Notes under the pieces: generated by a model
What the model saw: only the letters and a program-made list of their open reading frames with translations
Databases searched by the model: none
Told to the model about the DNA's origin: nothing
Position numbers and translations under genes: made by a program
In this document: piece by piece, positions 43,386-44,896 of the stretch
Layout: the number at the start of each line of letters is the position of its first letter
Numbering within the stretch: position 1 is the stretch's first letter
DNA from: a virus
Virus record (IMG/VR): IMGVR_UViG_3300008108_000016
Location: 32,001 to 96,000 of that record
Direction: 5' to 3' (one strand)
DNA length: 64,000 nt

Positions 43386-44816
43386 ATGAAAGTATCTATT
43401 AAACATATCAAATGCCCTATGACAAAGGAAAGTAGGGATCTTGCAAAAGTTTTTATTGAATTCTTACAAAAGAGATTTCCTCTTAATCACGATATTACAG
43501 TTTTATTTTTAGGCGAAAGAACTGGTACTATGACAACAGGTAGTAGAAATAATGATCACGTTTTAAAAGTATTAACAAAAAAAAGATTAAATAGAGATAT
43601 TTTAAAAACATTATCTCACGAGTGGGTTCACGAATACCAACATTCAATTTTAGGTAGAGAAAGAGGCCCAGATATTGGTGGTCAAAATGAAGATGAAGCT
43701 AACTCATATGCGGGAAGATTAATGAAGATTTTTGAGAAAGAACACCCTGAATTTACTGAATTAGTTTACGAAGGTTTTAAAAATACATTAAAAAGAATTG
43801 ATTTAATCTCTGAACAATTTGTTAAAAAAGATAAAGAATTAATACAAGAACAATTCCTATTAGAAATGAAAAAAATAGGAATAGATAAATTACCCTATTC
43901 TTATTCGGCATTAAAACAATTTGTGGATCCCGAAACAATGGATATTCACTATAACAAACATTACAAAGGATATGTAAAAAAACTTAACGATGCCTTGTCA
44001 AATAAGAAAGGTGAAATGGAACTTGAGGATATAATTAAAACCATAAGTAAGTTTGATACTAAAGTTAGAAATAATGCTGGTGGAGCATTTAATCATGCAT
44101 TATTTTGGAAAATGTTATCACCAAAAAAACAAACACCAAAGGGAGATATCTTGGAAAGAATATTAAAACAATTTGGTTCTTTTAAGAAATTCAAAGAAGA
44201 ATTTAACAAAGTCTCAATGGATAATTTTGGATCGGGTTGGTGTTGGTTAGTTCTAACGAAAACAAATAGATTAAAAATAATGTCAACACCAAATCAAGAC
44301 AATCCTTTAATGAATATAATTGATGGTGGTGGATATCCATTATTAGGTCTTGATTTGTGGGAACACGCATATTATTTGAAATATAGAAATAAAAGAGATC
44401 AATATATTAAAAATTTTTGGGATTGCGTGAATTGGGAATTCGTTAATAGTCTTTATGACTTGAAAACAAACAAAAAAGAAACAATTAATGAATCGGTTGA
44501 TCGTAGAGAAAAATCGGCATTAAAATGGTTAAACAAGAAATTTGGTGATCTTACACCGGTGGTTGTTGACAATAGAACATATTATATTGATGAGGACAGA
44601 AAACCATTATTTTACTATTCCCAGGATTCAAAATATAAGGATATTTATATAAATTACGAAAGAATTTGGTCGTTTTTTAATTCTATTTTTGGTCTGAATA
44701 CCTTGCAAACACAGGAGATTCTGAAGGTATGGTTGGAAGAGACCTATAATTTAAAGGGGGTCACACCTCCTAAAATTGTGTACCGCGGCTTTAAAATGGT
44801 TGGAAGAGACCTATAA
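43386..44816 (+). CDS. sodA: Tripartite fusion: zincin-like HEXXH domain, Fe/Mn superoxide dismutase (Mn-type signature) and an unknown C-terminal domain
   Basis: HEWVH..NEDEAN; KLPYSYSAL, HYNKHYKGY, NNAGGAFNH, FGSGW, NQDNP, DLWEHAYY; a further ~108 aa follows the SOD domain. Confidence 0.85.
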   Translation: MKVSIKHIKCPMTKESRDLAKVFIEFLQKRFPLNHDITVLFLGERTGTMTTGSRNNDHVLKVLTKKRLNRDILKTLSHEWVHEYQHSILGRERGPDIGGQNEDEANSYAGRLMKIFEKEHPEFTELVYEGFKNTLKRIDLISEQFVKKDKELIQEQFLLEMKKIGIDKLPYSYSALKQFVDPETMDIHYNKHYKGYVKKLNDALSNKKGEMELEDIIKTISKFDTKVRNNAGGAFNHALFWKMLSPKKQTPKGDILERILKQFGSFKKFKEEFNKVSMDNFGSGWCWLVLTKTNRLKIMSTPNQDNPLMNIIDGGGYPLLGLDLWEHAYYLKYRNKRDQYIKNFWDCVNWEFVNSLYDLKTNKKETINESVDRREKSALKWLNKKFGDLTPVVVDNRTYYIDEDRKPLFYYSQDSKYKDIYINYERIWSFFNSIFGLNTLQTQEILKVWLEETYNLKGVTPPKIVYRGFKMVGRDL

Positions 44817-44896
44817 TTTAAAGGGGGGGGCACGCCAGTTGTGTCTCGTATGTTATAAAAATAACAGTCGGAGGAAACCTTATAATTTAACCCACA
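44732..44896 (+). CRISPR. CRISPR-like mini-array: 2 repeats, 1 degenerate repeat and 2 spacers; no cas genes in the window
   Basis: R1 44732-44767 GTTGGAAGAGACCTATAATTTAAAGGGGGTCACACC (36 nt); spacer 31 nt; R2 44799-44836 (first 29 nt identical, G-tract expanded); spacer 30 nt; R3 from 44867 GTCGGAGGAAACCTTATAATTTAA (degenerate). Confidence 0.55.

Follow-up and report, generated by a model that had tools for sequence, protein, structure and literature searches.

A CRISPR-like array at the 3' end of a phage gene and its possible role in diversification of C-terminal peptides

The analyzed stretch of viral DNA (64,000 nucleotides, further called the window; it covers bases 32001-96000 of a virus record of 157,807 nt, ~51% complete) contains a gene whose 3' end is also the first repeat of a short array. 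Comparison of related loci indicates that pieces of natural DNA of ~30 bp were inserted directly behind this gene, with duplication of its last 36 bp. Because of the duplication, the newest piece falls in the frame of the gene and constitutes the C-terminal peptide of the encoded protein. The most natural explanation, which we favor with some reserve, is that the gene end is a working CRISPR leader-repeat junction, at which Cas1-Cas2 of the host writes variable C-terminal peptides. A broader proposal, that the adaptation machinery of the host has been turned into a protein diversifier providing a recombinable library of tails for host conflict, is more tentative and falls a little short of an even chance. 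By its repeats, spacers, polarity, and spacer source, the locus is a CRISPR array in the generic sense; it is not a type VI-B system.

Other genes of the window are presumably those for tail sheath, baseplate, DNA polymerase, and ribonucleotide reductase, most of them named by the look of the sequence. Two free-standing open reading frames (ORFs) at 32736-34331 and 50395-51006 resemble homing endonucleases, the second with an HNH-type motif, and 42-nt tandem repeats at 56670-57631 encode 14-residue repeats in a 2503-aa ORF, a pattern also seen in the heads of adhesins or tail fibres. Ribosomal protein bS21 is encoded by the record and by its relatives, the bS21-like gene at G000:C1:142132-142290, outside the window, matching with E 6e-5, below the family cut-off; a zinc-ribbon match in genome G001 is weak and also below the cut-off. 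These phages fit the ~300-kb freshwater phages with predicted Bacteroidetes hosts (PMC9723584), and the cassette family described here belongs to bS21-type huge phages of Bacteroidota. A weak hint to the host is provided by a phage contig with baseplate genes and the cassette (L234:1-1825) that was binned inside a Flavobacterium genome (G044).

Table 1. Features of the array locus and of the in-frame arrays of the sister family (window coordinates unless a locus is given)
Feature	Coordinates	Strand	Description
Fusion ORF, 476 aa	43386..44816	+	HExxH N-terminal domain, Fe/Mn superoxide dismutase, array-linked domain
Cassette extent	44447..44920	+	absent in strain X12
Array-linked domain, ~92 aa	44493..44767	+	helix, four strands, two helices; no recognised family
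Repeat 1, 36 nt	44732..44767	+	also last 12 codons of the domain; type VI-B-like
Spacer 1, 31 nt	44768..44798	+	newest spacer; translated as 10 residues
Repeat 2, 38 nt	44799..44836	+	G-tract expanded; 5' part equals repeat 1; holds the ORF stop codon
Spacer 2, 30 nt	44837..44866	+	old trailer spacer
Terminal 5' half repeat, ~22 nt	44867..44888	+	usual array ending in the family
Head-tail adaptor (neck) gene	44917..46068	+	phrog_211, E 3e-10; context only, downstream of the array
Sister family arrays	L155:13868-14620, L324-L344		up to a dozen or more 22-residue units

The layout of the array is given in Table 1. Positions and lengths of the 36-nt repeat, of the 31-nt and 30-nt spacers, and of the G-expanded second copy agree with the first-pass annotation, as does the reading of the ORF through repeat 1 and spacer 1 to a stop (44814-44816) inside repeat 2. 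With its 31 nt, spacer 1 shifts the reading of the second repeat out of frame. The first two copies have 32 identical nucleotides in common (blastn E 1.7e-12), and 100 shuffles gave no chance matches to repeat 1. What had been taken for a decayed full third copy is a 5' half repeat, the normal ending in the family. The proposed GACCT/GGGTC stem is weak (-5.4 kcal/mol), and relatives do not conserve its register.

The gene carrying the array is a fusion. Its N-terminal domain (43386-44480) contains an HExxH zinc-binding motif, and superoxide dismutase is recognized by PF00081 at residues 166-245 and PF02777 at 251-355. In relatives, other domains are fused at this place. [IL]-x-E motifs flank the dismutase on both sides, at the fusion joints. 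In phage T4, internal head proteins such as IPI are cut by gp21 at L/I-X-E (PMC9026906); by analogy, the joints may be cleaved, and the ORF resembles a cleavable head-cargo polyprotein. Like the T4 internal head proteins, the array-linked proteins are small, multi-copy, and variable, some of them with [IL]-x-E at the start or at fusion joints; unlike them, they carry an array, and no match in sequence or fold to the T4 proteins was found. The motif occurs within the first 10 residues in 86 of 245 family proteins (35%) vs. 108 of 511 other phage ORFs (21%), which is a modest difference. The peptide encoded by the repeat also begins with L-x-E (44733-44741), with the glutamate conserved in ~76%, and in principle a head protease could cut translated repeat units apart there.

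The array-linked domain, whose 3' end appears to act as the leader side of the array, is present once in the 157.8-kb contig. Its AlphaFold model (pLDDT 87) places the repeat at the end of the last helix and in the following loop. The structure prediction and Foldseek search proposed earlier gave no clear match in PDB (best E 0.39); VIA-align gave best Z of 5.5 and 4.3, and matches in BFVD and the Atlas were to uncharacterised phage proteins only. Atlas feature matches to DUF3684/DUF8348 were set aside for low recognition. No family was assigned by Pfam, PHROG, or PADLOC, Rfam gave nothing at the gathering level, and no homologues were found in GenBank phages. Lack of such matches is no proof of a new fold.

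The domain has 117 close homologues, and the whole family forms 585 clusters at 50% identity; its members are stand-alone genes of ~100 aa or C-terminal fusions. From loci on viral and metagenome contigs, 197 distinct domain copies were taken. In 148 of them, the last 12 codons of the gene itself recur downstream one to seven times (among the closest homologues, 124 of 140 have downstream repeats), and a second repeat is absent in the other 49. Thus, the expectation that homologues are consistently followed by repeat-spacer arrays was borne out. The 249 unique spacers are 29-32 nt long, with a mode of 30. Internal repeats are identical to the first repeat of their own array in 69 of 110 cases and differ from it by ~1 nt, whereas between arrays the first repeats are 6.8 nt apart; hence the template of each array was the preceding gene end. 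These loci are related and partly overlapping, and the repeat statistics are accordingly not independent. Terminal copies retain positions 1-23, the 3' part being kept in only 24 of 147, and the next gene copy often follows directly. One genome (G004, loci L201-L203 and L206) contains 16 domain copies in tandem clusters, most of them with a single repeat or decayed arrays. At L004:2162-2330, the first 7-8 bases are nearly the same in three successive spacers, and other arrays contain spacers with similar beginnings.

Spacers common to several arrays sit distally, and the gene-proximal ones differ. Spacer 2 of the window matches at 29 of 30 positions in four other phage contigs, and only in sister arrays. 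In the near-identical strain X5 (a single contig), the repeats are the same but enclose an unrelated spacer 1, with the array otherwise identical. Both observations point to growth at the gene end, with the translated spacer being the newest one. Strain X12 (one contig, depth 9.9) lacks the whole cassette: position 44446 is joined to 44921 with 32 other bases between them. The idea of a mobile cassette is thus in line with presence and absence between strains. The G-tract of repeat 2 varies in length between strains (public runs, single contigs each). The short array of the window may be a remnant of a longer tandem locus, such as that at L004, collapsed through recombination between repeats.

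The spacers bear a mark of translation. For testing, 258 spacers were clustered into 242 unrelated groups. Stops in the gene frame number 0, 3, 1, 6, and 3 in spacer codons 1-5, where ~16 per codon are expected, and return to normal in codons 6-9 (11, 14, 18, and 16). In total, codons 1-5 contain 13 stops in 1180 codons (p=5e-20), and the other five frames have no dip. Selection thus appears to act on the protein. First and later spacers show the dip alike, as each later spacer is expected once to have been the first. In a simulation with a hand-set filter strength, random genomic 30-mers from both strands combined with a stop filter reproduced the frame pattern. The AlphaFold model has one beta-bridge at spacer codon 5, a single low-confidence backbone contact, which would match the five-codon reach of the stop filter. 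Amino-acid content of the translated spacers is near random, except for fewer stops and cysteines. About half of the spacers shift the frame, and beyond codon 5 stops are tolerated; selection in the subfamily of the window therefore covers only a short tail, which purifying selection alone could explain. Of the three functions suggested earlier, the data favor variation of the C-terminal peptide. However, the term spacer exchange needs correction: the peptide does vary, but apparently through addition of spacers at the gene end and not through their exchange.

Another degree of the same tendency is provided by a sister family, whose domain is weakly homologous to ours (hhalign E 7e-5, probability 62%) and whose 36-nt repeat is related. 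Its arrays are wholly in frame: 90 spacers contain no stops in 902 codons, and all lengths are multiples of three. Fully protein-coding arrays, foreseen as a possibility in the first-pass annotation, therefore do exist. They also decay away from the domain.

The spacers have 34.6% G+C and a natural, strand-symmetric word signature. When translated in six frames, six of them match proteins of Flavobacterium covae (a sample of 1.6 of 3.4 Mb) at no fewer than 8 of 9 residues; controls gave 0.7-0.8 (at most 2), and phage proteomes none. Given this excess, at least part of the spacers comes from the bacterial chromosome, an origin that the initial description had not foreseen. The best cases are two pieces of PurA (one 9/9, 26/30 nt) and one of glycyl-tRNA synthetase (26/32 nt), while a spacer similar to IS30 transposase matches at 27/31 nt with three of four changes silent. 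By recognisable motifs, we take the sources to include PurA, GlyRS, MiaB, SprB repeats, IS30, and SecDF, and presumably also a Mur ligase, PhoD, an epimerase, and an acyl-CoA ligase. The matched host genes form a scattered set, and a source is assigned for only a few per cent of spacers. A Markov composition test places the spacers between host and phage, which is compatible with a phage contribution or with another host. No exact protospacers were found in ~400 Flavobacterium and 331 Bacteroidia genomes sampled, and hence no PAM is readable. Searches against six related phage genomes gave no matches above the shuffle level, and those against GenBank phages and plasmids gave nothing credible. 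For the two spacers of the window, the searches against phages and hosts that had been suggested yielded no source, with no exact match to spacer 1 in IMG/VR; weak Flavobacterium matches to spacer 2 were judged to be chance. The estimated sense fraction of spacers is 0.52, whereas an all-antisense set would give 0.27; spacers thus seem to be taken from both strands without antisense bias.

A scenario consistent with these data is as follows. As the comparisons show, new pieces enter at the gene end, older ones move downstream, and those that bring a stop within codons 1-5 are purged. The integrase would be the host type II-C Cas1-Cas2 acting in trans, as on the VI-B arrays of Flavobacterium columnare that lack cas1, and it may be fed by host DNA broken down during infection. 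The variable peptide would be carried by a small, multi-copy, probably head-packaged protein and might serve against changing host targets; recombination between repeats might expose stored spacers or move the cassette. The last two steps are suggested with less force than the preceding ones. Both the enzyme and the benefit are deduced indirectly, the benefit with the greater uncertainty.

The same writing process could operate on a peptide that is not adaptive. A gene end derived from, or mimicking, a VI-B repeat would then passively collect spacers or divert Cas1-Cas2 from host arrays as a decoy, and the stop filter would only reflect that the structure requires some five additional residues, whatever their kind. 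We regard this as the main competitor, at roughly one chance in four. In agreement with it, the translated spacers are near random in composition except for a scarcity of stops and cysteines, the contact modelled at codon 5 is a backbone bridge, and frameshifting lengths are frequent; many paralogues per genome, such as the 16 matches in G004, would provide many decoy sites. However, the sister-family arrays, open and in frame over up to a dozen units, require selection on the whole translated array. Synonymous positions held at repeat ends also argue against pure drift, but not against a decoy.

The relation to type VI-B systems was considered on ten real arrays (Flavobacterium, Bergeyella, Riemerella, Capnocytophaga, and others) from GTDB genomes; owing to the pattern used for their retrieval, the set leans to the Bergeyella/Flavobacterium types. 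The likeness to VI-B repeats that was noted at first holds against these arrays: repeat 1 is identical at 21 of 36 positions (shuffle p 1.5e-4) and the family consensus at 22-23 of 36. Three of the VI-B arrays, from Flavobacterium, Bergeyella, and Capnocytophaga (L217, L220, L222), are likewise cut off at the point where the phage arrays stop and thus terminate in a 5' half repeat, here of 20 nt. In five VI-B-bearing genomes tested, the Cas13b model matched in all five, over the cut-off in four, and cas1 was present in each. A cas1-less VI-B array of F. columnare gains spacers of 28-32 bp, mostly 30, through the II-C Cas1 acting in trans, and many of its new spacers come from the bacterial genome (PMC8092290). 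The phage arrays share with VI-B arrays of Flavobacteriales, such as those of F. columnare, the 36-nt repeat (21-23 positions identical), spacers of ~30 nt, growth at the 5' end, the 5' half repeat at the far end, the absence of own cas1 and cas2, and possible chromosomal spacers. In contrast to VI-B, they reside in phages in which cas13b was not found, their basal stem is broken, both leader side and first repeat code for protein, and the spacers are filtered by frame, with no antisense bias.

Several of these likenesses (repeat length and identity, spacer length, the half-repeat ending) would also fit arrays that yield crRNAs, or mimics of them, loading Cas13b of the host and thus silencing host genes, hitting rival phages, or blocking the effector. 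Moreover, huge phages are known to carry Cas-less arrays and spacers that target the host; such short arrays were interpreted as guide RNAs (Al-Shayeb et al., 2020, PMC7162821). The arrays studied here are similarly short, lack acquisition and effector genes, and have host-like repeats and some host-gene spacers, but they overlap a gene, are selected for translation, and have no phage targets found. Most phage repeats retain 8 of the 15 pairs of the VI-B register. However, the phage repeats end differently and therefore form pair 2-35 of the basal stem in no more than 3% of cases, several upper-stem pairs form in less than 25%, folding energies are -3 to -7 kcal/mol vs. -7 to -11 in VI-B, and the hairpin register shifts. 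Thus, the paired basal GTTG/CAAC stem and strong hairpin of VI-B repeats were not found in the phage repeats. No cas1 was found in 26 carrier records, no cas2, cas4, cas13b, or reverse transcriptase (RVT_1) in five carrier records, two of them complete, and no cas13b around the array of the window. With the stem broken and cas13b not found, guide use looks unlikely. Further arguments against it are the scattered host genes, the sense fraction, the lack of phage targets above the shuffle level, and variation that follows codon position. RNA runs, in the form of contigs, contained no more than 5% of the words of the region. With the basal stem broken in 97% of repeats, the suggestion of crRNAs or decoys for Cas13b finds little room, and we give it less than one chance in ten.

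Variation in the repeats is highest at third codon positions, as expected for conservation at the amino-acid level. Nevertheless, synonymous change is not free throughout, since the two ends of the repeat have fixed rare codons: Leu TTG in 93% vs. 17% genome-wide, Thr ACA in 96% vs. 51%, and Arg AGG in 98% vs. 11%. Given these codons and the weak folding, the repeat seems to be held as protein and as DNA signal and less as an RNA hairpin. Some conservation of rare codons is also seen upstream of the repeat, and ancestry therefore contributes to the pattern.

Even less probable is the suggestion that the small domain is an RNA-guided or RNA-binding protein supplied with guides by the array. Linkage of gene and array is constant, the repeat follows the sequence of its own gene, and the fold has no clear match, all of which would suit such a pair. 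However, co-variation of repeat and gene is trivial because they are the same DNA. The conserved residues are mostly in the hydrophobic core, there is no conserved RNA structure, 49 of the 197 copies have no second repeat, and the selection signal lies on the reading frame; we found no positive evidence for a guided protein. Simple tandem duplication of the gene end followed by divergence, which the two and a half copies in the window alone might suggest, is refuted for practical purposes: between near-identical repeats the 258 spacers form 242 unrelated clusters and are not diverged copies of each other, these inserts are of fixed length even between identical repeats, several match bacterial genes, and a whole spacer differs between near-identical strains.

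Diversity-generating retroelements use a reverse transcriptase and a template repeat to introduce mutations at adenines into a variable C-terminal segment. Peptide writing at the gene end, as preferred here, would have a similar outcome, in that an otherwise constant scaffold of a phage protein would bear a C-terminal segment that varies. In contrast to retroelements, there is no reverse transcriptase or template repeat, and whole foreign blocks of 10 codons are inserted: the spacers are mutually unrelated, and RVT_1 is absent from the five records. The arrays also differ from viral mini-arrays and RNA anti-CRISPRs, which have non-coding repeat units, as repeat 1 is coding and the spacers are frame-filtered. 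In the literature searched, mostly open-access papers, we found no description of translated or in-frame arrays that overlap phage genes and are selected as protein. Such loci may have been missed because array finders would list them among orphan CRISPRs and gene callers among hypothetical proteins.

In summary, CRISPR spacers are known as RNA guides, whereas the selected product here appears to be a peptide. The arrays offer a record of host DNA in uncultured phages that can be used for host assignment, and they could serve as a template for writing peptide libraries in the cell. They would also give more than 100 natural variants of repeat and leader for asking what Cas1-Cas2 of Bacteroidota recognises, an open point in PMC8092290. 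If confirmed, peptide writing at the gene end would join retroelements and inversion cassettes as another way of varying proteins in a targeted manner, and it would be an example of host Cas1-Cas2 employed by a virus on its own genes.
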